Positions 8,690 through 54,369 of a stretch of DNA of 64,000 bases are shown piece after piece. Position 1 is the first letter of the stretch; every line of letters starts with the position of its first letter. Both the position numbers and the translations under genes were made by a program. The DNA lies in contig OZ244999.1 in the NCBI GenBank assembly GCA_965223265.1, positions 1,504,001-1,568,000 of the forward strand. Direction: 5' to 3'. The notes beneath the pieces are model-generated. The model was not told the DNA's origin. It saw nothing but the letters and a program-made list of their open reading frames with translations, and searched no databases. The stretch comes from Planctomycetota bacterium (GTDB lineage: Bacteria; Planctomycetota; UBA8108; SXIK01).

Positions 8690-9070
8690 ATGCCGTCCTC
8701 GATCACTGCCCTTTATCCAGTTGTCGCCGTCGACTCGCCTCGTGACACCGCTGCCGCGTTCGCCGAACTGTTCGATTTGCAGCCGGTGTTCGAGTCGGAC
8801 TGGTACATGCACTTGGCGAGCGCGTCAGGTGGGTGCCAGGTGGGGCTTGTGCGCTTCGATCATGAAAGTGTCCCAGAGGGGTATCAAGCCTCTGTCCGCG
8901 GCGCGTTCGTCACCATGGATTCAAACGACGTAGCAGCAATGTGGGAGGAGAAAAAGGGTCGGCTTGACGTCGTTGTTCCCCTCGCTGACGAGTCGTGGGG
9001 GCAGCGTCACTTTATTTGCCGCCTCCCAGGCGGTGTGCTCGTCGATGTGGTTCAGATGTTGACCGAGTAG
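8690..9070 (+). CDS. VOC/glyoxalase family protein
   Basis: GAGG SD before ATG 8690; FESDWYMHL, DESWGQRHFICRLPGGVLVDVVQ. Confidence 0.9.
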   Translation: MPSSITALYPVVAVDSPRDTAAAFAELFDLQPVFESDWYMHLASASGGCQVGLVRFDHESVPEGYQASVRGAFVTMDSNDVAAMWEEKKGRLDVVVPLADESWGQRHFICRLPGGVLVDVVQMLTE

Positions 9071-9179
9071 CTGGAGGAGGCTGCGTCCTGGGGCTTGTGC
9101 AGCGTCGGGGAAGCGTTACCGCCACCGCACCGAAGAACCTTTCGATGGCAAGGAAGAACATGGTAGACTCGCCGCTACC

Positions 9180-9812
9180 ATGTCACGTGTGAAGAATCGC
9201 CCGCAGGTCGTGTCCTCACAGGAGCGCAACGAACGAGTCGCGGCGGCCCTGCTCGCGTTCGTTTTTAGCGGTGTCTATTGCTTTTGGATGCCGCTTCACA
9301 TGCTCGCGTCGCCTCACGATCATGTCCTTGGGTGGGTGCCTCACTCGCATTCGGACGGGCACGGCCATGCTCACCATCGGCGTCCAGTCGACGGCCAATT
9401 GTCTCATGCCCACGGACAGCCCGCTGCGCATGATCATCACGACCACCACGATGACGATGATCACCACCACCACGCCGTTTCCATCGGTCACGGTGGGCTT
9501 CACACCGAAGTGGTCGACGAGAGCGAGTTCGGCGGGGGGAGCCTTTTGGTCCTCAGCGCGATCGAGCCGCTGAGTTCGGGAGAATCGATCGTCCATCACC
9601 ACCCTTCGTTTAAAGACACTTCGATCGACTTGCAGGCTCTCGATCTCGCCGCCTTTCTGCAGCCGCATCGCATAGTCGGCACGAGCCTCGAGCCCGTAGC
9701 CTCCGAGGTCCCGACCTCGTCGCACGACCCCCCGCAGCGTTTCGTTCACGTCCCAGCTGCGCCGCGGGCGCCTCCGGTTCAGCAGCTTTCTTCCTCGGTG
9801 TTTTGCGACTGA
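9180..9812 (+). CDS. His-rich leader-like protein with one TM/signal segment and a C-terminal RAPP motif (DUF2946-like architecture)
   Basis: Hydrophobic segment, then HSHSDGHGHAHH...HDHHDHHDDDDHHHH, then PAAPRAPP (RAPP at 9765-9776) near the stop; lies directly upstream of a metal RND operon. Confidence 0.75.
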   Translation: MSRVKNRPQVVSSQERNERVAAALLAFVFSGVYCFWMPLHMLASPHDHVLGWVPHSHSDGHGHAHHRRPVDGQLSHAHGQPAAHDHHDHHDDDDHHHHAVSIGHGGLHTEVVDESEFGGGSLLVLSAIEPLSSGESIVHHHPSFKDTSIDLQALDLAAFLQPHRIVGTSLEPVASEVPTSSHDPPQRFVHVPAAPRAPPVQQLSSSVFCD

Positions 9813-9863
9813 TTCGTCGCCTCCGGAGAATGTCTGTGTTCACGGCCCGCCGAAGTGTGATGG

Positions 9864-10008
9864 CGCCCGATTCTGGGCGGTGAATAGCGTCGATCTAGAC
9901 GCTAACGATCCAGCCTTCGTCTGGACTCACGCGACAGGTGCCCGTCTTTGTGTGCTGCTTCTCCACTCGGCGTTCAGTCGCGTTTTGACGCGAGCTGTTA
10001 GCGGAGTG
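9864..10008 (+). promoter_or_regulatory. Structured leader with three hairpins; the last one pairs with the GGAG SD of the czcB-like gene
   Basis: CGCCC/GGGCG (9864-9879); TAGCGTC/GACGCTA (9885-9904); CACTC..CAG-TCGCGT-tttg-ACGCGA-g-CTG..GAGTG (9964-10008), which covers GGAG at 10003-10006. Confidence 0.45.
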
Positions 10009-10016
10009 CACTTCGC

Positions 10017-11672
10017 ATGAAGACCAAGAAGTCAATGAGTGCAGAGGTGGCGCTGTTTTGCGTTGGGATTTGCCTCGTGGCGTGCAACCGCCACGAATCC
10101 AGCGTCCACAGTCACGGTGGTCATAGCCACGGCGCGGATGGTTCCGGCGGCCACGGCCACGATCATCCTGAGCCGCACACCGTCCAAGTGACGTTGTGGG
10201 AGGGCGGACTCGAAGCATTCGTCGAGTACAGATATCCCGTTGCCAACAAGAACGTGCGTTTCGTCACGCATCTCTCCGACCTGACGAGTGGTGAGCCGCG
10301 GCGCGAGGGGAAGATCGTTTTTTCACTCGATGGTCCGGGCGGCGGTCGTTTCGAGCATGTCGAAGAGCGGCCAGCCCGTGACGGAGTCTATCTCCCGACC
10401 CTGGTTTTTCCCGTTGCGGGCGTGTGGAAAGCGGCGCTCGTGGTCTCTAAGAAGGTCGGCGAATCGGTGCGTTTCGAATTGCCAGATGTGACGGTCTACG
10501 CCAGCGATGGCGCTGCCGAGAAGGCACCTGCGCCGCCGGAGCCGGATGGAATCTCCTTTCTCAAAGAGCAACAGTGGAAGCTCGCCATGCTGACCGACGT
10601 GGCGACGACGAGACAACTCAGTGCGCGGCGCAGTTTCCCCGCGTACGTCAGGGCAAAAGCGGGGCAGCGCGTGGCTGTGGCCTCACCGGTTGCCGGTCGG
10701 GTCGTGCCGCCCCCAGAAGGAGAATTTCCTCGCCGAGGACGTGTTGTCGGCGCGGGTGAAATCCTTGCGCTCGTCGAGCCGACGATTCCTAGCGCGGAGC
10801 TCTTGTCACTCGCTGTCAAGCTTGCCGAGGCTGAGGCCGAGGAGCTACGCGCAGCACAAGCACTCAAGCAGGCGCAGACCGTCGCCGCGCGCATCGAACG
10901 ACTTGAAAAGGTGGACGCGAAGTCTGCTCGTGAGCTCGAGCAGGCGCGGTTCGACGTCGACGCCGCGAGAACCGCCCTTGAAGCGGCCACCGCGATCAAG
11001 AAGAGCTACGAGAGTGCGCGTGCGTACACCGAGTCCTATCGGTCTGACCGGGGCAGCGGTAGCTCAGGTCTCGCGCCGATTGCCTTGACGGCACCGATTT
11101 CGGGCACGGTGATCCAGGTGGGTACGGCGCCCGGCGAGCGCGTCACCGGCGCTGAGTCGCTTTTCGTCGTTCTCGACGCGTCAACGGTTGCCATCGAAGC
11201 GAGGATCGCACAGCACGAGGCTTCAGGGCTCGCCAACCCTGCTGCCTATGTCGAGCTCGGGTCAGCGGCGACGGGCGACGTCCTGCGACGGCCCCTGACT
11301 CTCGTCTACTCCGGCCTCGAGGTTGAAGAACCGTCGCGTGCGGTGCCGTTCGTCTACGAGGTCGAGAATCGTGACGGACTGCTACGCGTTGGCATGTCAG
11401 TGAGCGTTTTCGTGGAGGTCGCCCCGCCGCGCGAGACGCTCGCGATACCCGAGTCAGCCCTCGTCGACGAAGACGGAAAGTACTGCGCTTTCGTGCAGCT
11501 CTCCGGCGAGAGGTTCGAGAAGCGGGACCTGACGCTTGGTGTGCGAGATGGTGCATTCGTCGAAGTTCTTGACGGGGTGGCACCAGGAGAGCGCGTCGCG
11601 ACAACCGATGCGTGGACGATTCGCTTAGCGTCGCTTGCGACCTCGATCCCAGCTCATGGGCATACGCACTAG
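10017..11672 (+). CDS. Heavy-metal RND efflux periplasmic adaptor (CzcB/CusB-like) lipoprotein
   Basis: LVAC lipobox, His-rich N-terminus, ISFLKEQQWK, SPVAGRV, coiled hairpin, APISGTV, LAIPESALVDE, C-terminal HGHTH. Confidence 0.93.
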   Translation: MKTKKSMSAEVALFCVGICLVACNRHESSVHSHGGHSHGADGSGGHGHDHPEPHTVQVTLWEGGLEAFVEYRYPVANKNVRFVTHLSDLTSGEPRREGKIVFSLDGPGGGRFEHVEERPARDGVYLPTLVFPVAGVWKAALVVSKKVGESVRFELPDVTVYASDGAAEKAPAPPEPDGISFLKEQQWKLAMLTDVATTRQLSARRSFPAYVRAKAGQRVAVASPVAGRVVPPPEGEFPRRGRVVGAGEILALVEPTIPSAELLSLAVKLAEAEAEELRAAQALKQAQTVAARIERLEKVDAKSARELEQARFDVDAARTALEAATAIKKSYESARAYTESYRSDRGSGSSGLAPIALTAPISGTVIQVGTAPGERVTGAESLFVVLDASTVAIEARIAQHEASGLANPAAYVELGSAATGDVLRRPLTLVYSGLEVEEPSRAVPFVYEVENRDGLLRVGMSVSVFVEVAPPRETLAIPESALVDEDGKYCAFVQLSGERFEKRDLTLGVRDGAFVEVLDGVAPGERVATTDAWTIRLASLATSIPAHGHTH

Positions 11673-11683
11673 AGGGAGACTCG

Positions 11684-14600
11684 ATGGTCGATTACCTGAT
11701 TCGTTGGTCTCTCCACAATCGAGCGCTCCTTCTCGTCTCCGCGCTCTTGGTGACCAGCTACGGTATCTACACCGCGCTGCGGCTTCCGGTCGATGTGTTC
11801 CCTGATCTTACAGCGCCGACAGTGACGATCGTCTGCGATGGTCATGGGATGGCGCCGACGGACATGGAGACGCAAGTGACGTTTCCGCTCGAAGCCGCTC
11901 TGAATGGCGCGGCGGGCGTTCGCCGCGTCCGTTCGTCAACCGCCGCTGGGATTGCAGTGATTTGGGTCGAGTTCGAGTGGGGCGAAGAGCAAGCGCAGGC
12001 GCGTCGGGTGGTCAACGAGAGGCTTTCGCTCGTGGTGCCAGACCTGCCGGAGGGCGTCACGACGATGCTCGCCCCCATCTCGTCGATCATGGGCGAGATT
12101 CTTTTTCTTGGACTCACATCGGACGTGCAGACTCCTCTCGATCTGAGAACCTATGCTGACACGTCGTTGCGACGGCGACTCCTGTCGATCCCCGGCGTGT
12201 CGCAGGTCGTCGTTATCGGCGGCGATGTGAAGCAGTACCAGATTCTGCTGCGACCGGAAGGGCTCACGAGTTACGGCGTAACCCTCGCCGACGTCGTCGC
12301 CGCGGTGAAGAAGGACAACGAGAACACGTCAGCGGGCTTCGTGAATACCGCCGGATCGGAGTACATCGTGTCGGGGCGTGGGAGGTTTTCTGATCTTCGA
12401 GACATCGGAGACGTCGTCGTTTCCACGCGGGATGAAGTCTCGGTGCTTGTACGCCACCTCGGCGACGTCGTGATTGGCCCCGCGCCCAAGCGTGGTGAAG
12501 GAAGCGTGCGCGGGCAGAAGGCGGTTGTGGTCTCCGTTCAGAAACAGCCTGGGGCGAACACGCTCGAGTTGACACGAGAGATCGACCGCGTGCTCGATCA
12601 GGTCGACGCGTCGCTTCCTGATGGCGTTTCTATCGAACGCGACCTTTTTCGTCAGGCAGGATTCATCTCGATTGCTGTGCGGAACGTACTCCACGCGCTA
12701 CGCGATGGAGGCATCTTGGTTGTGTTGATCATGTTTCTGTTCTTGGCGAGCGTCAGGGCAACGGTCATCACGCTCACTGCGATTCCGCTCTCCCTCGTCG
12801 CCGCAGTGCTGACGCTGAAGGCGTTCGGGGCGACGATCAATACGATGACGCTGGGCGGTATGGCGATCGCGATCGGTGCGCTTGTGGACGATGCCGTCAT
12901 CGATGTGGAAAACGTCATTCGGAGATTGAGAGAAAACCTGGCGCGCCCCGAAGCGGAGCGTCGCGGCAACCTTGGAGTCGTCTTCGAGGCCAGTAAGGAG
13001 ATCCGCAAATCGATCGCGTTCGCCACGCTCATCGTCATGCTCGTCTTCGTGCCTGTGTTTTTTCTTCCAGGTATCGAGGGGCGGCTTCTCAAACCACTTG
13101 GAACTGCGTACGTCGTTTCTCTCTTCGCGTCGCTCGTCGTAGCTCTGACCGTGACTCCGGCGCTTTGCCTGCTGCTGCTGCCGCGAAGCCGAGGCGTCCG
13201 CGCCCCGCATGAGCCACGGCTTGCACGCGGCGTCAAGCGACTGTACGAGTCGGGGCTCGTTTGGGTTTTGAGGCATCCTCTTGTCGTCACGACGCCGATC
13301 TTGGTCGCTTTTGGAACCTCTGTCGCGGCGCTCGTCTCCTTCGGTCGAGCGTTTCTCCCCGATTTCAACGAGGGCACGCTCACGATCAGCGCGGTGACGG
13401 TGCCCGGGATTAGTCTGCCCGAGTCCGACAAGCTCGGGCGCCTCGTCGAAGAAGCTCTTCTTGCGCACGAGGAGGTGACTTCGACGGCACGGCGAACTGG
13501 GCGTGCTGAGCTCGATGAACACGCCCAGGGTGTCAATTCCTCAGAGATCGACGTGTCACTCGATTTCAAAGAGCGTTCTCAGGGGGAGTTCCTTGCTGCC
13601 TTGCGTCGCGACCTGGCGCAGATTCCGGGGATGAACATCACGATCGGCCAGCCGATCTCGCATCGTATTGACCACATGCTCTCTGGAACCCGCGCCAATT
13701 TGGCGGTGAAGATTTTCGGCCCGGATCTCTACAAGCTTCGCCGGCTTGCAGAGCGAGTACGCATGGAAATGGAATCTGAGCGAGGTGTCGTTGACCTCTC
13801 GGTCGAGCAACAAAGTGACATTCCAGTTCTCTCCGTGCGCTACCGTCGTGACGCTCTCGCTCGCCACGGTGTCTCCGTCAGTGAAGTCTCTCACGCACTC
13901 GAAGCCGCGGTGCAAGGAGTTGAGGTCTCCAAGTTCCTGGAAGGGCGTGCGACTTTCGATGTCGTTGTCAAAATCGAAGCCGAACAGGAGTGGACAACGG
14001 ACCGCCTCGGGGTGCTACGCGTCGATGTGCCGTCGGGAGCGAGCGTTCCGTTGAGTGCTCTAGCGACCATCCACAAAGGCAAGGGGCCGAACGCTATTAG
14101 TCGCGAAGACGTCGAGCGCAAGATCGTCGTGCAAGCGAACGTTGCGGGGCGTGACATTACCTCGGTCGTCCACGCCATCAGGCAGCGCATCGATCCGCTG
14201 GTGAACGGCGAGCCTGGCTACCGCGTTGAATACGGCGGTCAATTCGAGAGCGCGGAGGAGGCGAGTCGTGTCCTCCTTGTGCTCGGGATCGTCGTTGTGA
14301 TTGGGATCGGTTTCTTGCTCCAGCTCGCGTTCGGTTCCGTGAAAGATGCTTTTTTCGTCATGGCGAACCTACCGCTCGCACTCATCGGTGCCGTGGGCGG
14401 TGTGTACATGAGTGGGGGGGTTCTCTCGGTCGCTTCGATCATCGGATTCATCACCGTCTTCGGCATCGCAACTCGTAACGGCATCATGCTCGTCTCCCAC
14501 ATACGGCACTTACAAGCCGAGGAGGGTGTCGACGACTTTCGAACTGCAGTCGTCCGCGGATCTGTGGAGCGACTGTTGCCCATTCTCATGACCGCGCTCG

Positions 14601-14788
14601 GCACCGCTTTGGCGCTGGTGCCGCTTGTCGTCGGCGGCGACAAGCCGGGAAACGAGATTCAGACGCCGATGGCGACGGTCATCCTCTATGGCCTCATCAG
14701 CGCCACCGCGCTGAACATGATCGTCGTTCCAGCGCTCTTTCTTCGATTCGGCACACAGACAGTGAATGAAGGGGATCCCTGTGAGTAG
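11684..14788 (+). CDS. CusA/CzcA family heavy-metal efflux RND permease
   Basis: LPVDVFPDL, INTMTLGGMAIAIGALVDDAVIDVEN (TM4), FLPDFNEG, GIATRNGIMLV, ERLLPILMTAL; 1034 aa from ATG 11684. Confidence 0.96.
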   Translation: MVDYLIRWSLHNRALLLVSALLVTSYGIYTALRLPVDVFPDLTAPTVTIVCDGHGMAPTDMETQVTFPLEAALNGAAGVRRVRSSTAAGIAVIWVEFEWGEEQAQARRVVNERLSLVVPDLPEGVTTMLAPISSIMGEILFLGLTSDVQTPLDLRTYADTSLRRRLLSIPGVSQVVVIGGDVKQYQILLRPEGLTSYGVTLADVVAAVKKDNENTSAGFVNTAGSEYIVSGRGRFSDLRDIGDVVVSTRDEVSVLVRHLGDVVIGPAPKRGEGSVRGQKAVVVSVQKQPGANTLELTREIDRVLDQVDASLPDGVSIERDLFRQAGFISIAVRNVLHALRDGGILVVLIMFLFLASVRATVITLTAIPLSLVAAVLTLKAFGATINTMTLGGMAIAIGALVDDAVIDVENVIRRLRENLARPEAERRGNLGVVFEASKEIRKSIAFATLIVMLVFVPVFFLPGIEGRLLKPLGTAYVVSLFASLVVALTVTPALCLLLLPRSRGVRAPHEPRLARGVKRLYESGLVWVLRHPLVVTTPILVAFGTSVAALVSFGRAFLPDFNEGTLTISAVTVPGISLPESDKLGRLVEEALLAHEEVTSTARRTGRAELDEHAQGVNSSEIDVSLDFKERSQGEFLAALRRDLAQIPGMNITIGQPISHRIDHMLSGTRANLAVKIFGPDLYKLRRLAERVRMEMESERGVVDLSVEQQSDIPVLSVRYRRDALARHGVSVSEVSHALEAAVQGVEVSKFLEGRATFDVVVKIEAEQEWTTDRLGVLRVDVPSGASVPLSALATIHKGKGPNAISREDVERKIVVQANVAGRDITSVVHAIRQRIDPLVNGEPGYRVEYGGQFESAEEASRVLLVLGIVVVIGIGFLLQLAFGSVKDAFFVMANLPLALIGAVGGVYMSGGVLSVASIIGFITVFGIATRNGIMLVSHIRHLQAEEGVDDFRTAVVRGSVERLLPILMTALGTALALVPLVVGGDKPGNEIQTPMATVILYGLISATALNMIVVPALFLRFGTQTVNEGDPCE

Positions 14789-16151
14789 ACAAGGTACTTC
14801 TTTGGCCGGGTTCCTGAGTGCAGCAATCTGTGGAGTGCTGGCAGGTTGCTCGCTTTCGTCGACCTTCCCACGAGGTGGCGACGAGCTTGCCCAAGAAACC
14901 ACCGCGCCGGTGCCGAGTGACCTGCTGCCGGAGGCGGGCGAGCAGTCAACCTCCATTGCGGAGGGCGCGACCGAGCCAGCAGGGGTTCCAGAGCCACTGT
15001 CGGTGGATGCCGCTGTTCGGTTCGCGCTCGCAAGCCACCCGGAGCTCGCGGTCTCGCGAGCACGGGTTGAAGCTGCTCTGGGACGAAAACTTCAATCGGG
15101 GGCGTTACCGAACCCAGCGCTTTCAGCTGCGATCGAGTCAGCGCCGTTTCATGGCAAGACGACTGGCGACGCGGAGTACCTGTTCGGTGTGACGCAACCG
15201 GTGCCCATCGGAGGGCGCTTGCGGCGCGCGGTCGAGGTCGAGTCGGCGCGTGAACAGCGGCTGTTGACGGAGCTCGAGGCGCAGAGGCGGGTGGTGGAGC
15301 GCAGGGTGCGTGGCGCTTTTGCAGCCGCGCTCTTTGCGCGAGCGACTCAGGTGATCGAGCGCGAGATGCTCGCAGGCGCCGAATCGGCGGCGCGGATCGC
15401 GGCGGCGAGGGTTGCTGCCGGCGATGCGACCGCAGCAGAACGGGCTCGCGCTGAGCTTGAAGGTGTCCGCGCTCGCATTTCGTTGCGTGCTGCAGAAGTG
15501 CAGCAGCGCCGAGCGCTCGTCGAGCTTCGTGGTGCGCTCGGGCTCGACGGGCGCGATCAGATCGAGCTTGTGGGCGATCTTGAATCAACACTGGCGCTTC
15601 CGGAGCTCAGTTCGGTCCTCGAGGCGCTGGAGACGAGCCCTATCTTGCGAGCCGAAGCTGCGGCGGTCGCCGAGTTGCAAGCGGCGATTTTGAGGGAGAA
15701 GGCGGAGCGCATACCGGACGTGGACGTGAGTTTCTTTTATCGACGTATCGAACAGACCGATGATGACGCGTTCGATGTCGGCGTGTCGGTTCCCGTGCCG
15801 CTGTTCGATCGCCGCGCGGGAGCGCTGAGACGCGCACACGCTGAGGTGTTAGAAGCCGAAGCGAGGCATCGGGCAGCGAGTAGGAGCCTTTCAGCATCCG
15901 TGCAGACGATCTATTGGAAATTGACACAAGCACTGGAAACCGTCCAGCTGTATCGCGACGAATTGACGCCGCAGTCGCAGACGGTACTAGAAGCCGCAAC
16001 CGCGCAATATGACGCCGGCGACATCTCGCTGGCAGAGTTGATTCCGATCCAGCGAGATCACCGTGAGCTCCGTCGTTCGTACATCGATCTCTTGCGCCAA
16101 ATCGCGCTCGACTGGGCCGAATTTCGTTCTCTCGTTCAGGCACCGCGGTGA
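14781..16151 (+). CDS. TolC-family outer-membrane factor (CzcC-like)
   Basis: LAGC lipobox, LPNPALS, QPVPIGG, VGVSVPVPLFDR, YDAGDISLAELI; overlaps the end of the permease. Confidence 0.92.
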   Translation: MSRQGTSLAGFLSAAICGVLAGCSLSSTFPRGGDELAQETTAPVPSDLLPEAGEQSTSIAEGATEPAGVPEPLSVDAAVRFALASHPELAVSRARVEAALGRKLQSGALPNPALSAAIESAPFHGKTTGDAEYLFGVTQPVPIGGRLRRAVEVESAREQRLLTELEAQRRVVERRVRGAFAAALFARATQVIEREMLAGAESAARIAAARVAAGDATAAERARAELEGVRARISLRAAEVQQRRALVELRGALGLDGRDQIELVGDLESTLALPELSSVLEALETSPILRAEAAAVAELQAAILREKAERIPDVDVSFFYRRIEQTDDDAFDVGVSVPVPLFDRRAGALRRAHAEVLEAEARHRAASRSLSASVQTIYWKLTQALETVQLYRDELTPQSQTVLEAATAQYDAGDISLAELIPIQRDHRELRRSYIDLLRQIALDWAEFRSLVQAPR

Positions 16152-23365: not shown

Positions 23366-26056
23366 CTAACGTCGGGTATCTGTGGCGTGGACCGACGATG
23401 GCTCCAGGAGAGACCGGATCGTGTCTAGGAGCTTTTGCGCATCGACCGGTTTGCTCAGGTATGCGTCCATACCTGCGCGGAAGCAAGCCTCTTGGTCTCC
23501 GACGACGGCGTTTGCTGTCAGCGCGATGATCGGCAGCCTTCGACGCTGGGACGGGGACGCTTGAGCGGGGCGCACGTCCTCTGCAGTGCGAATCTTGCGT
23601 GTCGCCTCGAGCCCGTCCATCTCTGGCATCTGGCAGTCCATAAGGACGAGGGCGTACTCTGTGTTCGCCACCGCCTCCACTGCCTCCCGTCCGTTCGTGG
23701 CAACGTCACACGAGTACCCAGCCGACTGCAGCATCGCGATCGTAACGATTTGGTTGACCTCGTTGTCCTCGACGAGAAGAAGCTTGGCATCGAGGCAGGC
23801 CGTCTCGTCTGGCGCGGGCGTGTCGGATTTCTCGCTGCACGAGGACCCCGACAGACAAACGTCACGTAGGACGCTCGAGAGGTCGTCCTCTCGGACCGGT
23901 TTGCTTAACGAAGCAGCAAAATTTAGCTCCTTTGCTGCCTGGTCTGTCAGGTCGTGTCCCGGTGTTAACACTACCAGAGGCGTGTGTTGGATTTCGGGTG
24001 ACCGCCGAATCACCTTGGCCAATCCAACGCCGTCCATATCTGGCATGTTTCGATCGATCAGAGCCACCGAGAACTCTCGATGACTGTCTACTGCGCTCCG
24101 CAGGCGAAGCAGTGCGAGCTCTGCGTTGTTGACTGCGTCAACTTCGACTCCCCAAGCCGCGAGTCGATCGCCGATCGCGGCACGCTGCGCTGCGTTGTCG
24201 TCGACAACGAGAACGCGGATCCCCCGAAAATCTTTTGGCAACGTAACGGAGTTTTCGCTGTTCGACGCGGCACATCCGAACGTAATCGTACACCAGAATC
24301 TGGAGCCGACCCCAAGCTCACTATCAACGCCGATCTCTCCCCCCATCAGTTCAACAAGTTTCCTTGAGATCGCGAGTCCCAAGCCCGTGCCGCCGTACTT
24401 ACGTGTGGTGGATGCATCGATTTGACGAAACGACTGAAAGAGACGTCCACGTCGCTCATTGGGAATCCCGATGCCAGTATCTCTCACCTCGAACCGGACC
24501 TGAGTATCGGCTGCTTCGCGATTGGTCACTTGAACATCGACACAGATTTCACCCGACGTCGTGAATTTGCTCGCATTGTTCAGCAGGTTTGACAGCACCT
24601 GGCGCAACCTCACGCGATCTCCCTTCACGATCGTTGGGACATCGGGAGCGATGGAACAGATCAGCTCGACGTTGCGCTCAGACGTCGCCTTGGCGAACGA
24701 AGTCACTACGTCTTCTACTACAGTGCGTAGATCAAACGGGGCACGTTCGAGTTCCATCTTTCCCGACTCGATCTTTGAGAAATCGAGGACGTCGTTGATG
24801 AGCTTGAGTAAGTCGTCGGCTGACGATTTGACCACGTCGCAATATTGACGCTGCTTTGGATTCAGCTCCGTTCTGAACAGCAGTTGGAGCATGCCGATGA
24901 CTCCGTTCATCGGAGTACGGATTTCATGGCTCATGCATGCGAGAAACTCGCTCTTGGCGCGATTGGCGGCGTCAGCCGCGCGGGCTGCCTCCTTTTCACT
25001 TGCCACGAGAGCCTGAAGGCGCCGCGCCATGGCATTGAACGAGGTCGACAGCTTGCCGAGCTCGTCTCGAGAGTTTTCGGCGACGGAGGCTGTAAGGTCG
25101 CCTCGTGTGATGGCTTCGGAGGCTAGCATCAGCTCGTTGACTGGCTCCGAAAGTCTGTCGGCGATCCAGCGACTGACGACGAGAGCGAAAGCGGCCGCGG
25201 AGAGGCCACCGATGACCAACCAGATCCAAGCCTGCTCGTAGAGTGCTGTGACCGTTGCCAAAGACTTGCATAAAATGACCGTGAAGTTCTGATCCTTCAA
25301 CGCGATGGGAATTGCGAACGAGTCACCGTCCGCCATGCGTATCCTAAATGGAGATTGTCGTTCACTTGAGTGGTGGCTATGACGGAGCGCCGCTGCGAGT
25401 AGTTCTGGATGTGGTTCCTCGCCTGAGTCAACCTCCCATGACCTGGCTACGATCTGGCCATCGCCAAAGATGAGGACGTTTCTGCCTGTCACAAGGCGGG
25501 CTTCATCGGAGAAGGCAGAGTCGACCGGATCACCGACGGCCAGTACGCCGACGATCTGGGCGTCGACCACGATAGGGACAAGGGCAACGAGAAGGATGTT
25601 GCCGCGGTATTTCCAGAGGCCTGTGAACTCGCTGCCCGCCAGAGCGACTTCGACGCCAGGTAACGTTTGTAGGTTGTCCCCGGTGCTTGCGGAGTTCGAA
25701 GCGTCGGCGAGAAGTCGACCTGTGTTGCCCATGACGACAGCAAACGGCGCGTTCGCGAGTTCGCGCGCCTCAGTTGCCGTGTGGAACACCGTCTCATGGT
25801 CGACGCTCGCGATGTTCATGACTGCCTTGAGGTATGGAGTCTCCGCGATCGCCCGTGCTTTTCCAACGAGGAGCTCGTAGCGAAGAGAGAGGAATTGTTC
25901 ATAGGATCGTCGACCTTCGTGAAGATTTTCGGCGACCTCCTTCTCCGCGAATCTCTCGATGACGATGCCGATTGCGCTCAACGCGAACAGCGTCAGCGAC
26001 AGCACGACGACTCCCATACCGATGAACAGCTTGGTGCGAAACGAAAACGCGCTCAC
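23366..26056 (-). CDS. Membrane hybrid sensor histidine kinase (TM-Cache-like-TM-HAMP-HisKA-HATPase-REC-REC)
   Basis: [36 protein letters not shown], and two receiver domains (VLVVDDN...[11 protein letters not shown]; LLVEDNEVN...[10 protein letters not shown]). Confidence 0.96.
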
Positions 26057-43590: not shown

Positions 43591-43782
43591 TGAAAAGGTT
43601 GAGGTTTTGTGCAGCCATCGAGTCGAGCGGGTGGTGGGGTGAGGTGAACCAGCGGACTCACTCACACCAACACCCATATATAACGTCTCAGCGACGCCAG
43701 AAGTAGGCGTCGTTGCTGCGTTTCGATGCAGCTCGGTGGCAGCGGATTCCCCGCGGTGGCGCAATGCGGTATGCTCCACGCC

Positions 43783-45537
43783 ATGAAATCGAGCTCAAGC
43801 AAGAAGATGCCCTCCGTCGCGAGTTTCCGCCACGTCTTTCAGTCGATCATTTGGCCCCGTAGAGGTCGCATCGCGATCGGCCTTCTTCTCATCTTCATCA
43901 ACCGTCTCAGTGGGCTTGTGCTTCCCGGGTCGACTCGCGTCCTCGTCGACCAAGTGATTCCTGAAGAGAACTTGCGACTGCTCGGCCAACTGCTCGGTTT
44001 CGTTGGCGGCGCGATCATTTTCCAGGCGGTGTCGTCGTTTCTGCTGACACGATTTGTTGGCATCGAGGCGCAGCATCTCATCTCCGAGCTTCGCGCGCAG
44101 GTGCAGCAGCATGTCATCCGGCTGCCCGTGAGCTACTTTGACAGCACGAAGTCTGGCGCCCTTGTCTCCCGCATCATGACCGATGTCGCTGGCGTGAGGA
44201 ATTTGGTCGGTACGGGACTTGTGCAGCTCATCGGCGGCACGCTGACGTCGGCAGTGGCATTCTGCTTGATGGTACAAATCGATGCCTTCATGACACTGAT
44301 CGCGCTGATCCCGCTCGGCATCTTCGGGGTCGTCTCGATGAAGGCGTTTGCCGTTGTGCGGCCGGTCTTTCGTGAGCGCGGCGTGATCAATGCTGAAGTC
44401 ACCGGTCGACTCACGGAGTCCCTCGGCGGCATCCGCGTCATCAAAGGATTTAACGCCGAGGATCGAGAGGAACGCATCTTCGAGGCTGGAGTCGAGCGCA
44501 TCTACCAGAACGTCCGCAGGTCGATGACGGCGACGAGTCTGGTCACGTGCTCGGGCACTCTGCTTATGGGTGTCGTCAGTGTCATTCTCATGGGTTTTGG
44601 CGGCGAGCGCATCATATCGGCCGAACTGAAGATGGGTGAATTCGTCTCGTTGACCCTCTACCTCGGTTTTCTCGTCACGCCAATCATGCAGATGGCCAAC
44701 ATCGGCACACAGATCACCGAGGCGTTTGCTGGACTCGATCGCATGAACGAGGTGCTGTCGCTCGAGACGGAGGGGCGCGACCCGAACCGCACCATCGAAC
44801 TCAAGGAGATCGGCGAGATTCGTTTTCGCGACGTGTCCTTCGCGTACGAGAACGGAAAGGATGTGCTCAGAAGCATAGACTTCGTCGCGGCTCCGGGCTC
44901 GGTGACTGCGCTCGTCGGCAGTTCGGGTTCGGGGAAGACCACGCTCGCAGGGCTCGCGGCGTCGTTTCTGACCCCGTCGAGCGGCGTGGTTGAGGTCGAT
45001 GGGGTCGATCTGTCGCGTGTGACAGTCGACAGCTACCGCTCTCGTCTCGGCGTCGTACTGCAGGATGACTTCCTTTTCGAAGGGACCATCCGTGAGAACA
45101 TCCTCTTCGGTCGTCCCGATGCCAGTAACGAAGATTTGCTTGAGGCTACGCGCGTCGCGTACGTCGATGAGTTCACCGAGCGTTTCGATGATGGACTTGA
45201 CACCTTGATCGGAGAGCGTGGTGTGAAACTCTCGGGTGGGCAGCGGCAAAGAGTCGCCATCGCGCGAGCTCTGCTTGCTGACCCGACGGTGTTGATCCTG
45301 GACGAAGCGACCTCAAACCTGGATGCCGAGAGCGAGCGGTATATCCAGAAGAGCCTCACAGAGCTGATGCGCGGCCGCACCACGTTCGTCATCGCGCATC
45401 GCCTCAGCACCATCCGCATCGCCGATCAGATCCTGGTGATCGAAGGCGGTGAGATCGTCGAACGAGGGACTCATGACACACTGATCGCCGAGGAGGGGCG
45501 ATACCATGAGCTGTACACGTATCAGGCGCGTATTTGA
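43783..45537 (+). CDS. ABC exporter, fused TMD-NBD (MsbA/MdlA-like)
   Basis: Multiple TM segments, Walker A GSSGSGKTT, LSGGQRQR, ILDEATSNLD, IAHRLSTI. Confidence 0.95.
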   Translation: MKSSSSKKMPSVASFRHVFQSIIWPRRGRIAIGLLLIFINRLSGLVLPGSTRVLVDQVIPEENLRLLGQLLGFVGGAIIFQAVSSFLLTRFVGIEAQHLISELRAQVQQHVIRLPVSYFDSTKSGALVSRIMTDVAGVRNLVGTGLVQLIGGTLTSAVAFCLMVQIDAFMTLIALIPLGIFGVVSMKAFAVVRPVFRERGVINAEVTGRLTESLGGIRVIKGFNAEDREERIFEAGVERIYQNVRRSMTATSLVTCSGTLLMGVVSVILMGFGGERIISAELKMGEFVSLTLYLGFLVTPIMQMANIGTQITEAFAGLDRMNEVLSLETEGRDPNRTIELKEIGEIRFRDVSFAYENGKDVLRSIDFVAAPGSVTALVGSSGSGKTTLAGLAASFLTPSSGVVEVDGVDLSRVTVDSYRSRLGVVLQDDFLFEGTIRENILFGRPDASNEDLLEATRVAYVDEFTERFDDGLDTLIGERGVKLSGGQRQRVAIARALLADPTVLILDEATSNLDAESERYIQKSLTELMRGRTTFVIAHRLSTIRIADQILVIEGGEIVERGTHDTLIAEEGRYHELYTYQARI

Positions 45538-49278: not shown

Positions 49279-52200
49279 TTAGCCCTCTGACTTGAGCCAG
49301 GCGATCAGGTCGGCCATCGCTTGAGGGTCGAGGAGCTTTTCGACACCGTCGGGCATGAGGGAAACGCTCGAGCTCTCGAGGCGTGCGATTTCTTGGCGGA
49401 GCAAAACTTCGTCGGAGCGCTCTGGCACCTTCAAGCGGATGGTCGTGGGTGTTTCCTCGGCGATGACGCCGGTGAGGACTCTTCCGATACGCGTGATGGC
49501 GGTGTACTGAGTAAACTCTGGATCGACCTCCCGATTGGGATCGAGGATGCTCTGAAGTAAGAACGAAATCGGCTTTTCGCCGATGCTTTCGAGGTCGGGA
49601 CCGATCTGTCGTCCTTCGCCACGCAATCGGTGGCAAACTGCGCAGTGCTTGCGAAATAGAGCGGCGCCTCTGCCCGGGTTGCCGTTGAGCGTCTCGGCGA
49701 CGGCGTACTCTCTGATGACCGCATCGCGGTCAGCGTGTGCGGCGGTGAAGAGCTTTTGGGCTTTCTCACGAACCGTTGGCATGCGGTGTTGAAGCAGGAG
49801 CTGCTGCTGCGCGAGACCGATTTCTCCGGTTGAAATCGCATCGGTGGAGAGCGCATCGAGGAGCGTCTGCAGCCACTCCTCGCGCGTCGCAAGAACCGCG
49901 AGGACGGCCGTGCGTAGGTTCGGCGCATGCGTCTTCCAGCTGGCGAGAAGAATCTCCGAAACCTCCCGCTGTCCCGTACGCGCGAGCGACTCGACAGCGG
50001 CCAACTGCAGTGACGGTGGTGCCTGTGGGTGCAGTTGCTGGCCGAGCAACTCGAGATCTGCGCCAATTTCTGAGAGTCCTCGACCGAGAGGTCCAGCGGC
50101 GACCACGCGTTCCTCGACGCTCGTGTTTTTGCTCACAAGCGTGCGGCGCGCCGTAGCGTACAGGTTTTCAAGTCGTCGAATTGAACGCTGCAAATCCGGT
50201 CCGGACTGCTCGAAAAGCTGAGCGAGAGATGTGTCCTGGCGCCCCAGAGAATTCAGGAGAGCCGTCACCGCACGGAATTGCCACGCTGAGTATCGAGCCT
50301 GATGTCCGGTTGCGTCTATCGGTTGCGAAATCTCGTCGAGAGCAAGTGTCAGCGCCATCTCATCGCGTAGCGCGGCTGCGAGTCCGATCCAACGTTCGAG
50401 GATGCGGGCGGACGGAGCCTCGTTCCTGTCGGTGAGTAGAGCTGCCATCATGCTCGTGGCGTGAGGAACCGCCGAACTCATCACGGCCGTCTGCACGTCT
50501 TCGTCCTCGGGGTCGCGGAGAGCCAATCGAACGAGTGCCGGCCCGGCACGACCGTCGCGCCACTCACCGAGGGTGAAGGCGAGCTGGTAGCGCACGGAAA
50601 GATCGGGGTCGCCGACCGTGTCGAGAACAGCGCTCGCAAGCTCACGCCAGGGCGGTGAGTCTCTGGACGCGGGATCCTCCCAAAGTGATGCTTGGCGAAG
50701 AAAGGATTCGCTCAGCTTGAGCGCGTGCGACCGCAGAGAGGCATGTTCATCTCGCAGCGCTACGGAGAGAACCTCTGGCGACAACGTGTCGAGGCTATAC
50801 AGTACGTAGAGAGCCTGAAGGCGTGCCTCGGGGCGCATGCTCCGTCTCACGATCTCCTTGAGCGGCTCGATCGCCGCACGGTCGTTCTTCGTCACTAGCA
50901 ATCTCTGAGCCGTGTCGCGTTGCCAGCCATTGGGGTGTTCGAGAGCTGCCACGAGACCTGCGGTATCCAACTGATCAAGACGAGGCACCTGCCGCAGGTT
51001 CGCACACCGTGGGAAGACACGATAAATACGCCCGCGGTCATCGCCTGCACGGAAGTCAAGAAGCTCGCGGAGATCTGCCGGATAGTATTCTTCGTGCTCG
51101 ATGATCAACCGATACATGTCAACGACGTAAAGCGCGCCATCGGGACCGGTTTTTGTCTGCGTTGGACGGAACCAGTTGTCGGTCGAAGCGAGGAACTCGC
51201 GCTGCTCTTCGCCGCGTGCGCGCTCAGCTCGAAAGCTCACGCCGTCGGGCACCAGGTGCATGCGGCGGACGATGCTCTTGTCGACTTCGCCAATGAAGAT
51301 GTCGCTCTCAAACTCATCACCGAACAGCTCGTCGCGATAGGGGTTGAGACTGCAAGGAGCCGTCACTTGGCCCAGGGGTTGCCCCATCTGTGGCCGCGCC
51401 AGAAGCCGAGTGCGCCGGTGGATGCGCCTGAGAGGGAGCGGGTCGGCGAGGTCGCGGCGCGTGCGCGTCGCCGGTAGGTGCGGATTCCGCCTCAAATAGT
51501 GATCCGGCAGGAAAAAGTGCCAGCCCCAGTTGGCGTAGGTGTTACCGAACCAGTTGCCCCAGTCGTCGCGGTGGCGACCGAACTCGGTGACGCCGGGTTC
51601 GGTGACGAGCTCCCCGGTCTCCGGTCGGATACGGAAGTCGCGCCGATGGATGTCAACGATTTCGCCGGTGAGAAGCGACGTGACCTTGCCACCGCTTCCT
51701 CCACTGGCGCAGTAGAGCCAGCCGTCGAGTCCATACTCGAATCCGTTGACGCGGTGCTGCTGGTTGCCCAGGGCGAATCCGGTGAAGAGGACGCGCTGCG
51801 TGTCTGCTCTCCCATCGCCGTCGTTGTCTTCGGCGTAGAGGATGTCGGGAGCGGCGCTGATGAGTGCGCCACGGCGCCAGGGCATCACGCCGGAGGGAAA
51901 GTTGAGCTTGTCAGCGAAGACGCTCGAGCGGTCATACTTGCCGTCGCCGTCGTCGTCGGTGAGAACGCGGACGGCGCCGCCCGGCTCCCCCTTGCCATCC
52001 ATACCTAGGGGATAGTCACGCATCTCGACCACCCAGAGTTTGCCGTCGGCGGCCCATTCTATAGCGATCGGGTCCTGAACCAGGGGCTCGGCGGCCACCA
52101 GTTCGACCTGAAACTCCGGCGCCACTTCGATCGTTTGAAGCGACTCCTGCGGCGACAGTGGGGGAGGCAGAAGACCGCTCACGAGTTCGTCGAAGGAGCG

Positions 52201-54147
52201 ACTTTCGGTGTGGTGGTCTAGGTGCCCAGTATCCTCGTTTTGGATCCACATCCTGCCCTTTGCAAACCAGACTCCGTTGTTGCGGTAGTTACCATCGCGC
52301 ACGATCATCGGTACCTCACCGACTTCACCGCGGCGTCCCTCGGACACCGGTCGCGTCCAACCGACGTGATCGAAGGCGCGCAGCACGCCCGGTGCCGGGA
52401 TGTACAGGTTGATCGAGTACCGCTCGGCATTCGAAAAGATCACGTCGTCGAAGCCGTCGGCGTTGAGGTCCACGAAGCGGAGCCCCGCGTCACGCCCCCG
52501 AGCGTCGACGATGGCCGTGCCGCGCGGCAGCGAAAAACTCTTCTTCTGCCAGACTCTATTCTCAGCAGACCAGGCGAACACCGCGTTCTGCGACTCGTTG
52601 CCGACGACGAGCTCGCAGCGTCCATCGTTGTCGACGTCCCGCAAGCGCACGCCACGATCCCGGCCGCGACTGCCAGTCAAGATGGGCTCGCCTTCTTCCA
52701 GGTGGAGTCCCCAGAGAAGCTCAGGCGCCTCGACCCAGCGTCTGCCTTCGAATCGCCAAGCGCCCTTGGTGCGTTCGCTGCGAACGAGCATCATGGCCGC
52801 GCCGTCAGAGTCGACGACACCGAAGCGGACGCCGCTGTCTGCTCGATGGCCTGCGTCGTCCGCTGCACCCGCGGACGACGAGACAATCGCGGTCGGAAAG
52901 TCCGATGTCGTCCACGCCCTGGACTCGGCGTTCCAGACTCGCGTCTGTCGCATCTCTTCATTGCCGATGATGACGTCGAGGAATCCATCGTCGTCCAGAT
53001 CTAAGACACGTACGCCGTTGTCCCTAGCGTCTGCCGCGCGGAGTGGCTGACCAGCAAGCAGGTGTTTCTCGAGTCGATCCCTAGCTTCGCCGAGGGTCAA
53101 GAACTTCACTTTGCGGCCGTGTTGTTTCGTGGCGTGATCGATGAGAGCGATGATCTCTTCGGGCTCACACTTGCCGTGCGGATGAAAGACCAGTGTCATC
53201 ACGCCCTGCTTGAGGACGGTGGCATCCAGCGCCGCCTTCCAGTCGCGCACGGTGTGGCGTCCGTGCGCGGGGATGTAGAAGTCCGCCTGGTGATCTCCGG
53301 GGATGGTGCACGGAAACTCCCACGCCAGTCGAGCGACGACGTAGGGATAGGGGTAGTTCGAGATGTGGTTGACGTAAACGTAGTTTTTGCGTCCGACGAT
53401 CGGGACTTCTCCGGTGGTGTATTTGGCGAAGCGCTCCTTGCCGTCTTCGTCAACGACGAGGCTATGCGGTAGGTCCGGGTCTTCCGACGTGAAGAGATGG
53501 TGGACCGTCGAACTGATCTCAAGAAAATGACCAGCAGCGGTGACGCGATTGAAAATCTCGGTGTAGAACCGTGGGCTGTGGGTGTTCCAAACGTCGGAGC
53601 AGGGGCCGCGGTATGCTACTGGCCGAGCGTCGGGGATCTGCCACAGCCGGTCGGTGCAGTCGTCGACGTTATGACGCGCACGTTCGAGGTCGCCGCTGTG
53701 AAGCAGCGGGCAGGGATGCTCGATCGTGTGTGTCTCCAGACTCAAGCCTTCGTCAAGCCACGTCTGAAGCTGTGGATCATCTGGCGGCACCGACAGAGTG
53801 AAAACACTCACCGGCGCGCGGCCATCGATCTTCTTGAGGCGTTCGAGAATTGGGCGCAGGAAGGCCTCGAACTTCGCGGTCTCACTCAGGTCGTCGATCG
53901 AGAGGACGACCACAGCCTCGACCCCTTCTTCGCCGACCCACTGCGGCGTCACCAGGCGTGGGAAACGATGCGAGGGGTAGTACGGGTCACAGAAGGCGTC
54001 GAGGTACGCTAACCGGTTGCCGTCGGTGGCGTTCACCACCGACGCGTTGGTCGCGAGCGTTAACAGCAGTGCGGTGAAAAGGAGGCGCGGGACTCGATCG
54101 CTGCTGTTCGGAGCTTCTCGCCGTGGAGTCTTGGCAAGAACAAGCAT
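49279..54147 (-). CDS. PVC-type membrane-bound dehydrogenase/heme-binding protein: polysaccharide-deacetylase-like, FG-GAP, sugar-dehydrogenase propeller, HEAT repeats and cytochrome c
   Basis: VVVLSIDD...ETHTIEHPCP; DLDDDG/DVDNDG/DLNADG repeats; ELVAAEPLVQDPIAIEW..DGKLWVVEM.DYP; FLASTDNWFRP...GPDGALYVVDMYR; CAVCH..GPDL; SLMPDG. Confidence 0.93.
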   Translation of the reverse strand: MLVLAKTPRREAPNSSDRVPRLLFTALLLTLATNASVVNATDGNRLAYLDAFCDPYYPSHRFPRLVTPQWVGEEGVEAVVVLSIDDLSETAKFEAFLRPILERLKKIDGRAPVSVFTLSVPPDDPQLQTWLDEGLSLETHTIEHPCPLLHSGDLERARHNVDDCTDRLWQIPDARPVAYRGPCSDVWNTHSPRFYTEIFNRVTAAGHFLEISSTVHHLFTSEDPDLPHSLVVDEDGKERFAKYTTGEVPIVGRKNYVYVNHISNYPYPYVVARLAWEFPCTIPGDHQADFYIPAHGRHTVRDWKAALDATVLKQGVMTLVFHPHGKCEPEEIIALIDHATKQHGRKVKFLTLGEARDRLEKHLLAGQPLRAADARDNGVRVLDLDDDGFLDVIIGNEEMRQTRVWNAESRAWTTSDFPTAIVSSSAGAADDAGHRADSGVRFGVVDSDGAAMMLVRSERTKGAWRFEGRRWVEAPELLWGLHLEEGEPILTGSRGRDRGVRLRDVDNDGRCELVVGNESQNAVFAWSAENRVWQKKSFSLPRGTAIVDARGRDAGLRFVDLNADGFDDVIFSNAERYSINLYIPAPGVLRAFDHVGWTRPVSEGRRGEVGEVPMIVRDGNYRNNGVWFAKGRMWIQNEDTGHLDHHTESRSFDELVSGLLPPPLSPQESLQTIEVAPEFQVELVAAEPLVQDPIAIEWAADGKLWVVEMRDYPLGMDGKGEPGGAVRVLTDDDGDGKYDRSSVFADKLNFPSGVMPWRRGALISAAPDILYAEDNDGDGRADTQRVLFTGFALGNQQHRVNGFEYGLDGWLYCASGGSGGKVTSLLTGEIVDIHRRDFRIRPETGELVTEPGVTEFGRHRDDWGNWFGNTYANWGWHFFLPDHYLRRNPHLPATRTRRDLADPLPLRRIHRRTRLLARPQMGQPLGQVTAPCSLNPYRDELFGDEFESDIFIGEVDKSIVRRMHLVPDGVSFRAERARGEEQREFLASTDNWFRPTQTKTGPDGALYVVDMYRLIIEHEEYYPADLRELLDFRAGDDRGRIYRVFPRCANLRQVPRLDQLDTAGLVAALEHPNGWQRDTAQRLLVTKNDRAAIEPLKEIVRRSMRPEARLQALYVLYSLDTLSPEVLSVALRDEHASLRSHALKLSESFLRQASLWEDPASRDSPPWRELASAVLDTVGDPDLSVRYQLAFTLGEWRDGRAGPALVRLALRDPEDEDVQTAVMSSAVPHATSMMAALLTDRNEAPSARILERWIGLAAALRDEMALTLALDEISQPIDATGHQARYSAWQFRAVTALLNSLGRQDTSLAQLFEQSGPDLQRSIRRLENLYATARRTLVSKNTSVEERVVAAGPLGRGLSEIGADLELLGQQLHPQAPPSLQLAAVESLARTGQREVSEILLASWKTHAPNLRTAVLAVLATREEWLQTLLDALSTDAISTGEIGLAQQQLLLQHRMPTVREKAQKLFTAAHADRDAVIREYAVAETLNGNPGRGAALFRKHCAVCHRLRGEGRQIGPDLESIGEKPISFLLQSILDPNREVDPEFTQYTAITRIGRVLTGVIAEETPTTIRLKVPERSDEVLLRQEIARLESSSVSLMPDGVEKLLDPQAMADLIAWLKSEG

Positions 54148-54369
54148 GTGGAATCTCCTGGCGATCGATTGGAGGCGTTTTTTCCGCGGCGGAGGATCGG
54201 CGGGAGCATCCTATTCGCTGACGCGCAGGAGTTGAAGATTAGGAGGCAAGTTGCAGAAGGTCTGGCGGCCGTCGATGACCTATCAGTCTCCCAGATGGGC
54301 TCCGCTGCGAAGGAATTTCCAGAATTTCAGACGATTCTGTCCAGATCGGCGGTCATACAAGAGAGTGCC

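Follow-up and report, generated by a model that had tools for sequence, protein, structure and literature searches.

A His-rich open reading frame with a C-terminal RAPP motif precedes a heavy-metal efflux pump operon in a planctomycete: a candidate nascent-chain metal sensor

Metal efflux pumps are, in the textbook scheme, controlled by two-component systems or by regulators of the MerR and ArsR families. The stretch of DNA analysed here (the window) comprises 64,000 nucleotides (nt) from a Planctomycetota bacterium (GTDB lineage Bacteria; Planctomycetota; UBA8108; SXIK01), namely positions 1,504,001 to 1,568,000 of contig OZ244999.1 in assembly GCA_965223265.1, and has a G+C content of 60.5%. 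It contains a three-gene operon for a metal pump of the resistance-nodulation-division (RND) type and, upstream of it on the same strand, an open reading frame (ORF) for a His-rich protein of 210 amino acids (aa) that carries the tetrapeptide RAPP near its C-terminus. This ORF, called here the leader, is the subject of the present analysis. The positions of the features are collected in Table 1.

Table 1. Features of the leader, its spacer, and the pump operon, with the upstream gene of the comparator locus L001 (positions refer to the window unless a locus is named)
Feature	Position	Strand	Basis or remark
Leader gene: 210 aa, His-rich, predicted single-pass (N-in/C-out) and disordered, RAPP near the C-terminus	9180..9812	+	ORF and relatives
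Predicted hydrophobic signal-anchor helix, codons 20–42	9237..9305	+	Hydropathy, invariant columns, predicted local distance difference test (pLDDT) 91–96 at residues 21–40
His-rich tract, codons 40–108, 22 His in 69 residues	9297..9503	+	Residue count, alignment
Last HxH (HHH, codons 139–141), 57 residues before Arg196	9594..9602	+	Tail alignment
PRAPP, codons 195–199, 11 codons ahead of TGA (9810–9812)	9762..9776	+	Sequence; invariant in 4/4 members
C>G bubble, candidate Rho utilization (rut) region, strongest at 9580–9757, immediately 5′ of the putative stall site	9540..9857	+	Base composition
Untranslated spacer, 204 nt, proposed site of conditional (Rho-dependent) termination	9813..10016	+	No intrinsic terminator, sigma-70 promoter, or Rfam element found
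Predicted hairpin enclosing the Shine-Dalgarno (SD)-like GGAG (10003–10006) and the AUG (10017–10019) of czcB	9944..10024	+	Minimum free energy −35.8 kcal/mol
CzcB-like membrane-fusion lipoprotein, His-rich N-terminal extension	10017..11672	+	TIGR01730 102.2 bits (cutoff 94.9), 2.6e-29; HlyD_3, HlyD_D23
CusA/CzcA-family heavy-metal RND permease	11612..14788	+	TIGR00914 742.1 bits (cutoff 701.45); ACR_tran 1.1e-258
CzcC-like outer-membrane factor	14766..16151	+	OEP 5.2e-42; IhpA-like 1.2e-27, below model cutoff
P0005, hypothetical protein, 178 aa	L001 5257-5793	+	Upstream of L001 czcB

When compared with solved structures, the permease of the operon scores 431.8 bits with CusA and 423.5 bits with ZneA, against at most 261.6 bits with multidrug pumps, and the best solved relative of the CzcB-like adaptor is ZneB (1.4e-17). 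Judging from these family assignments, the operon is that of a heavy-metal efflux (HME) RND tripartite pump of the CzcCBA/CusCBA type. Which metal it transports does not follow from the sequence, since the scores of CusA and ZneA are nearly equal. The TIGR00914 alignment begins at residue 25 of the frame, which makes the Met at 11684 the probable start of the permease. The adaptor is a protein of 551 aa with an N-terminus some 190 residues longer than in proteins of the ZneB/MacA type (matches to structures start at residues 193 to 243); it has a His-rich stretch directly after the lipoprotein signal, ends in HGHTH, and shares its N-terminal extension with the CzcB homologue of the comparator locus L001 (see following), which matches from residue 45 on. 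A Pfam scan of the ORFs of the window places no MerR/ArsR or two-component regulator adjacent to the operon, the nearest regulator-like gene being a hybrid histidine kinase (23366-26056, minus strand).

The leader protein has 28 His in total and a Pro/Ser-rich tail that contains PRAPP. Its best 19-residue hydropathy window covers residues 20–38 (Kyte-Doolittle 1.85), and the N-terminus ahead of the helix is basic (K+R 5, D+E 2). AlphaFold2, run on the four-row alignment of the leader and its relatives, yields a single helix at residues 13–43 of the leader and nothing else, with a mean pLDDT of 55.6 and values below 50 at residues 96–176. Such a result fits a disordered sensor or leader, although with so shallow an alignment a fold could have been missed. 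The call of an export signal rests on the hydropathy windows, the flanking charge, and the AlphaFold2 model, and the topology so predicted is a cytoplasmic basic N-terminus, one signal-anchor helix, and a His-rich chain directed toward the periplasm. The initial annotation of this region, made from its letters and ORFs, had described the ORF in these terms (210 aa, one hydrophobic segment, a His-rich middle, and PRAPP with 11 codons between it and the stop), had assigned the operon to a CzcBAC-type pump, and had stated that no regulator of the MerR/ArsR or CzcRS type lies beside it; all of this is borne out.

No SD-like sequence precedes the leader ATG (9180) at the customary distance. A mini-ORF of 10 codons (ATG 9160 to TGA 9190–9192), preceded by AAGGAAG (9151–9157), overlaps codon 4 of the leader (GTG 9189–9191) through the GTGA at its end. 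From the sequence, this overlap could represent translational coupling, another true start of the leader, or chance.

The leader belongs to no described protein family. It matches 0 Pfam families at E ≤ 10 and no NCBIfam model; a word-index protein search with this ORF alone gave 0 matches among 1662 candidates, tblastn of plasmids gave no match, and the exact protein of 210 aa was not returned from a collection of 5.8 billion proteins. The ESM Atlas returned only unnamed clusters of about 155 aa (score 0.94–0.95) and one cluster in which 35% of the members carry DUF6769, all of these being leads without sequences. Codon usage is equally unhelpful: the leader scores 0.029 per codon versus 0.03–0.22 for 16 long genes, and an ORF antisense to it (9216-9749, minus strand) scores 0.115. 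This antisense ORF codes for 177 aa, in which the His codons of the leader are read as runs of Val and Met. Together with the missing exact protein, the log-likelihoods (0.115 versus 0.029) would suit an open frame arisen by chance in GC-rich DNA, or an antisense ORF that is the real gene. The high antisense score is, however, accounted for by the near equality of the G+C contents of first and third codon positions here (GC1 ~ GC3), which lifts the score of the mirrored frame by construction. The antisense ORF also stops short of the region of RAPP and has no family match, whereas the sense frame has matches in three predicted proteins encoded on other contigs. These matches are significant with its N-terminal part alone, the indels keep the reading frame, and helix, His motifs, and PRAPP are common to all. 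Codon statistics thus leave the status of the ORF undecided, and homology settles it as a real gene; that there is no gene on this strand appears very improbable. Gene callers can skip genes of this type or choose the wrong strand, and no family model exists for them.

The relatives were retrieved by phmmer in an exhaustive pass over 1.84 billion (1.84e9) protein representatives at a cutoff of E ≤ 1e-3. Two of the three matches are relatives of the leader, P0001 (155 aa, E = 1.2e-5) and P0002 (157 aa, E = 2.0e-5), and a profile of three sequences added P0004 (172 aa), a sequence with 88% identity to P0002. The third match, P0003, is a repeat protein of 945 aa and was rejected as compositional: seven of its stretches align with the His-rich part, and it lacks the architecture of helix, His motifs, and RAPP. 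Residues 1–130 of the leader taken alone, a part that excludes RAPP, give library-scale E values of 5.2e-7 for P0002, 6.9e-6 for P0004, and 8.7e-6 for P0001, whereas the last 80 residues alone show no detectable similarity (E ≥ 5e3). Hence, the relatives are found through the region of the helix and the His motifs and not through the tail.

All four members of the family have one hydrophobic window (Kyte-Doolittle 1.64–1.85), with a basic tail before it and an acidic, His-rich stretch after it. The invariant residues of the helix are A22, L25, F29, Y33, W36, and P38 (numbering of the leader), and the motifs at its end, W36-x-P38-x-H40 followed by P45-H46, are also invariant in 4/4, as are P54-H55-S56-H57 and P195-R-A-P-P199. 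Eight His are invariant (H40, 46, 55, 57, 66, 78, 95, and 97), the relatives having 12–13 His each. By contrast, there is no invariant Cys column, the four sequences containing 2, 2, 0, and 3 Cys. The motif reads SPRAPP in the relatives, with 6 (P0001), 10 (P0002), and 10 (P0004) residues between it and the C-terminus, and APRAPP in the leader, where 11 residues follow. The last HxH of each protein (HHH in the leader, HEH in the three relatives) lies 57, 58, 57, and 57 residues from the Arg of RAPP in the leader, P0001, P0002, and P0004, respectively. This distance is constant even though the intervening sequence has diverged and contains indels, and the extra ~53 residues of the leader are all upstream of the last HxH. 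Coming from three lineages only, the fixed spacing is suggestive. Conservation of the transmembrane helix, the His tract, and the proline motif had been set by the initial annotation as the test of its proposal. The helix and the His motifs are indeed present in 3/3 sequence relatives, without a conserved Cys, and so is RAPP; the one candidate found by synteny does not carry it.

This candidate comes from a czcB-based scan of genome contigs, one genome per species, which reduced 198 pattern matches to a single locus (L001) in a Phycisphaerales metagenome-assembled genome, whose CzcB is 34% identical to that of the window. About 93 nt upstream of the likely czcB start (ATG 5887) lies the gene of P0005, a protein that combines a basic tail and a single helix with a short His-rich stretch (HEHDDEGSHAH). 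Its tail reads PRATG where the leader family has PRAPP. Homology between P0005 and the leader family is not demonstrable (BLASTP E = 0.38; hhalign probability 0.3%, the tail being the sole piece aligned), and a search of the protein collection with P0005 found only itself. Because P0005 lacks RAPP, either His-rich upstream proteins exist without this motif, which favours an accessory role, or the two proteins are unrelated. Downstream of the czc operon of L001 there is an ORF of 70 aa (13383-13595, plus strand) with RAPP 19 residues from the stop; it has no hydrophobic segment, lies among overlapping open frames, and is, from these features, probably spurious.

The motif itself has a well-documented activity. 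RAPP and RGPP sustain arrest in several different peptide contexts and rank among the most avoided four-residue words of bacterial proteomes, and they cluster near the C-termini of small secreted and membrane proteins whose genes lie ahead of others, among them genes of metal homeostasis (PMC12992588; Fujiwara et al., EMBO J 2025). In the source data of the same work (EV3), the mean frequency bias in Planctomycetota is 0.187 for RAPP, i.e., about a 5-fold depletion, and 0.154 for RGPP. All 7 of the 7 C-terminal RAPP/RGPP proteins of S. lividans tested there arrest translation in a motif-dependent way, and in the toeprint of the Bordetella leader CruR the P and A sites are occupied by codons 3 and 4 of RAPP, respectively (PMC12992588). 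The view of RAPP as an arrest core, and the existence of metal-sensing leaders of the CruR and CutF type, are therefore backed by published work.

Does the leader act through arrest, or as a protein in its own right? In the latter case it would be a membrane-anchored periplasmic His-rich metal binder, co-transcribed with the pump and serving as a buffer, a chaperone, or a partner of CzcB, with RAPP at most a pause for its own targeting or insertion and without any control of czcBAC. The His tract and the motifs at the end of the helix are preserved at the level of the protein; P0005, with its helix and His-rich stretch but no RAPP, suggests that proteins of this kind can be retained for their own sake; the family spans 155–210 aa, above the <150 aa of CutF-like leaders; and CzcB carries similar His-rich stretches. 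Against this stand the strong avoidance of RAPP in proteomes and the uniform outcome in S. lividans, which speaks for arrest. Moreover, RAPP and its distance from HxH are the sole conserved features of an otherwise unalignable tail, no folded domain is predicted by the model, and a spacer of 204 nt is unusual within a simple operon. An accessory protein without regulatory function is thus unlikely, though it has to be reckoned with.

Less can be said for structure in the spacer. The fold of 9760-10040 has an energy of −105.9 kcal/mol versus −101.9 ± 4.65 kcal/mol for shuffled sequences (z = −0.86; 38/200 shuffles as stable), and the hairpin in front of czcB has z = −1.62 (10/200 shuffles as stable). 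Among segments of native sequence, 25.8% of 400 (101 nt) and 38.5% of 200 (204 nt) are equally stable. The spacer, which the initial annotation had called structured, therefore folds no better than shuffles or native segments; the SD hairpin that it had described is there in the predicted fold, enclosing both GGAG and AUG, and is likewise no more stable than expected by chance. An Rfam scan of 8800-10300 gave 0 matches at E ≤ 1, so that a riboswitch or other known RNA element upstream of czcB was discarded. A scan of the spacer found no site resembling an intrinsic terminator and no sigma-70-like promoter, the latter being weak evidence since planctomycete promoters are poorly known; the only promoter-like site found lies inside the leader ORF (9295-9323). 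Attenuation of the hisL type through the supply of His-tRNA, considered on account of the His runs, was set aside because about 100 codons separate the end of the His tract from the stop.

An arrest peptide could still use the hairpin if, as with CutF or SecM, the stalled ribosome melted mRNA structure and freed the ribosome-binding site of czcB, i.e., if control were translational. CutF operates in this way (PMC9973294; bioRxiv 10.1101/2025.02.05.636593), the predicted hairpin sequesters the right elements, and bases of the stall site (9766-9773) are predicted to pair at long range with ~9935-9942, beside it. Nevertheless, the stall site is about 170 nt away from the hairpin, and the CutF authors limit stall-driven unfolding to short spacers, theirs being mostly <100 nt. 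When the footprint of a ribosome at RAPP is imposed (9757-9790 forced unpaired), pairing of the SD remains at 0.79 and that of the AUG goes from 0.96 to 0.99; with a footprint at the stop codon (9795-9826 forced unpaired), the values stay at 0.79 and 0.96. Since SD and AUG pairing are thus unchanged in constrained folding, a route of the CutF/SecM type is unsupported, and the unmasking of the SD was dropped as the main route. With stability not above chance in addition, it is an improbable explanation. A relay of structures was one of the two outputs offered by the initial annotation, which had asked for folding with and without a ribosome; this part does not survive, and its fall-back, an antitermination effect, fits the locus better owing to the base composition of the leader mRNA.

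This composition was scanned in 78-nt windows for the ratio of C to G, relative to the percentiles of the whole 64,000 nt. Windows starting at 9580–9720, i.e., immediately 5′ of the presumed stall site, have ratios of 1.45–1.93, the 95th and 99th percentiles being 1.44 and 1.79. Mapping placed the rut site of CruR in a C>G bubble within its upstream ORF (uORF), the stop points fall in a spacer of 162 bp, and long spacers are found across its family (PMC9426467). In leaders of the TnaC type, a ribosome arrested at the end of the leader ORF shields rut, and transcription crosses the spacer (PMC12360218). By analogy with these systems, and given the composition and folding values, an output of the TnaC/CruR type is favoured over the hairpin route. 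Taken by itself, Rho-dependent attenuation as the output of the leader is tentative, its chances falling well short of even.

The mechanism that would follow can be outlined. The leader would be made with its basic N-terminus and signal-anchor helix as in the predicted topology, and the disordered His-rich chain would be threaded to the periplasm. The ribosome would arrest at RAPP with Pro198 (9771–9773) in the P site and Pro199 (9774–9776) in the A site, an assignment made by analogy with the CruR toeprint (PMC12992588). At that point about 160 residues would be outside the ribosome, and the conserved last HxH should sit near the outer mouth of the translocon. Metal bound to the exported His would alter the pulling force on the nascent chain, or its folding, and prolong the arrest, a polarity like that of CutF; metal must prolong the arrest because the downstream operon encodes an exporter. 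The arrested ribosome and those queued behind it would then cover the C-rich, G-poor stretch and block Rho, so that RNA polymerase could reach czcB, whereas without metal the ribosome would finish and leave, and Rho would terminate transcription in the spacer. This would be the logic of TnaC, and that of CruR with the opposite sign. Metal sensing as such, its polarity, and the metals concerned are purely inferred.

How far does the evidence carry this reading? Several points weigh against it. The family consists of four sequences in three lineages, of which only two (P0001, and P0002 with P0004) are independent of the window, and its association with RND pumps rests on one locus, that of the window. 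The codon scores of the leader and its antisense ORF, and the PRATG of P0005, were described above. RAPP occurs once in the 20,060 residues of the 46 ORFs of the window where composition predicts 0.51, so that a single occurrence is unremarkable and the weight falls on its retention in all relatives, within a tail that cannot otherwise be aligned. The C>G bubble may be a mere product of the Pro, Ser, His, and Ala codons of the leader, a promoter of another type might lie inside the spacer, and the presence of Rho in Planctomycetota enters here as general background. On balance, the leader acting mainly as a cis-acting arrest-peptide regulator of the czcBAC-type operon comes out somewhat on the probable side of even. 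The most complete version, namely that of a convergent family outside DUF2946 that senses periplasmic Zn, Co, Ni, or Cd through a His motif set 57–58 residues from RAPP and turns on an HME-RND exporter by blocking Rho, is rather unlikely to hold in all its parts.

Nascent-chain sensors of the CruR and CutF kind are recent and have been worked out experimentally for copper and Cys motifs only. If regulation by the leader is confirmed, the mechanism would reach beyond copper to further metals and would apply to RND exporters and in a phylum whose regulation is poorly known. Read in the most complete way, it would be the first nascent-chain sensor to report a metal other than copper across the membrane through His, with no precedent for an RND pump or in Planctomycetota, and the leader would replace the usual control of such pumps by two-component or MerR-type regulators. 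The leader would also provide a compact module (~850 nt) in which to study how a ligand outside the membrane alters arrest in the ribosome. The ruler of 57–58 residues offers a handle on the geometry, as insertions between HxH and RAPP are predicted to break regulation.

The neighbours of the operon are a weak glyoxalase-like ORF, an ORF without family, an epimerase, and a gene resembling those of iron-containing alcohol dehydrogenases (Fe-ADH). Elsewhere there are sulfatases, FG-GAP proteins, a giant DUF7133/cytochrome c protein, and a sigma factor of the extracytoplasmic function (ECF) type, a content that fits Planctomycetota and relatives, as does the Phycisphaerales origin of the one related czcB locus. 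The giant protein (1622 aa; DUF7133, HEAT, and cytochrome c; minus strand) is encoded back-to-back with the ECF-type sigma gene (54148-54858, plus strand) in the region 49279-54858. An ABC transporter gene (ABC_membrane and ABC_tran; 43726-45537, plus strand) is overlapped on the opposite strand by an ORF of 484 aa (43795-45249), presumably another mirror-frame artefact of GC1 ~ GC3.

Among known systems, the leader is closest to CutF and CruR, and on sequence features it is probably a His-based variant of this kind. CutF of Rhodobacter capsulatus is a chain in which periplasmic copper, by binding to the exported part, enhances stalling (PMC9973294; bioRxiv 10.1101/2025.02.05.636593). The likeness would lie in an exported nascent chain that senses metal in the periplasm and induces a detoxification gene by way of a C-terminal, proline-based stall. 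The differences concern the motifs and the output: CutF has CXXXC and a PPP motif relievable by EF-P, and its stall melts a nearby stem-loop, whereas the leader has RAPP and no conserved CXXXC, and the stem-loop model fails the fold test at its locus. The survey that accompanies CutF defines CutF-like proteins by a length of <150 aa, PP among the final 15 residues, an N-terminal signal, and a same-strand gene within 1000 nt (PMC9973294). The leader is longer (210 aa, and 155, 157, and 172 aa in its relatives), and it has the other three features in the window, with PP at residues 198–199 of 210, the signal-anchor helix, and the spacer of 204 nt. As described in that survey, CutF-like genes occur upstream of genes for OEP, CusA/CzcA, and CusB/CzcB proteins, and two clusters (14 and 17) are His-only, these being upstream of HupE/UreJ and not of RND pumps (PMC9973294).

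CruR (Bp2923) of Bordetella pertussis is a copper-responsive uORF with a C-terminal RAPP and Rho-dependent termination before bfrG (PMC9426467). Like CruR, the leader opens a metal-homeostasis operon and codes for a poorly structured chain with an N-terminal export signal. Both have a C>G bubble toward the 3′ end of the uORF and, after it, a long spacer (162 bp in CruR, 204 nt here). The near-constant distance between the last HxH and RAPP in the leader family is reminiscent of the set spacing of CXXC and RAPP described for CruR (PMC9426467). They differ in their ligands, which are His in the leader and the hallmark CXXC in CruR, in the spacing between ligand and RAPP (57–58 residues in the leader family, 45 in CruR), and in the number of residues after RAPP (6–11 versus 3). 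CruR arrest is relieved, whereas the leader precedes an exporter, so that metal should prolong its arrest; regulation by CruR is reported to be independent of its signal peptide; and CruR belongs to Proteobacteria, the host of the leader to Planctomycetota. Furthermore, CruR and CutF are both members of DUF2946. The leader, P0001, and P0002 have no match to this family (0 Pfam at E ≤ 10), and P0004 has only an unrelated weak match (E = 0.45).

With ApdA, ApdP, and the S. lividans proteins, the leader shares a small size, a localisation signal, a RAPP core close to the C-terminus, and a same-strand gene downstream (PMC12992588). It differs in genomic context, the ApdA/ApdP class having first been found upstream of Sec and YidC genes (PMC12992588, PMC10951233, PMC7897499). 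The 2025 extension of RAPP/RGPP peptides to metal genes covers TonB receptors, YcnI, PCu(A)C, and PepSY (PMC12992588), and the terms "efflux" and "RND" have 0 occurrences in the main text of that paper. With TnaC and SpeFL, the leader would share a ligand-stabilised arrest that shields rut, the inducer acting by antitermination across a long spacer (PMC12360218); those two leaders are short peptides of the cytoplasm responding to a small molecule in the exit tunnel, whereas the sensor of the leader would be an exported, His-rich chain.

A literature search for a His-rich or RAPP leader associated with czc or RND genes, which did not extend to the cluster and neighbour lists of PMC9973294 and PMC12992588, returned only the CutF and CruR papers. 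The general idea is already in print, because the CutF survey lists genes of this kind upstream of such pumps and the EMBO paper ties RAPP peptides to diverse genes. In comparison with both, what is new is a His-only family, invisible to the DUF2946 model, that stands before an HME-RND pump in Planctomycetota and combines a ruler of 57–58 residues with a layout suggestive of Rho.

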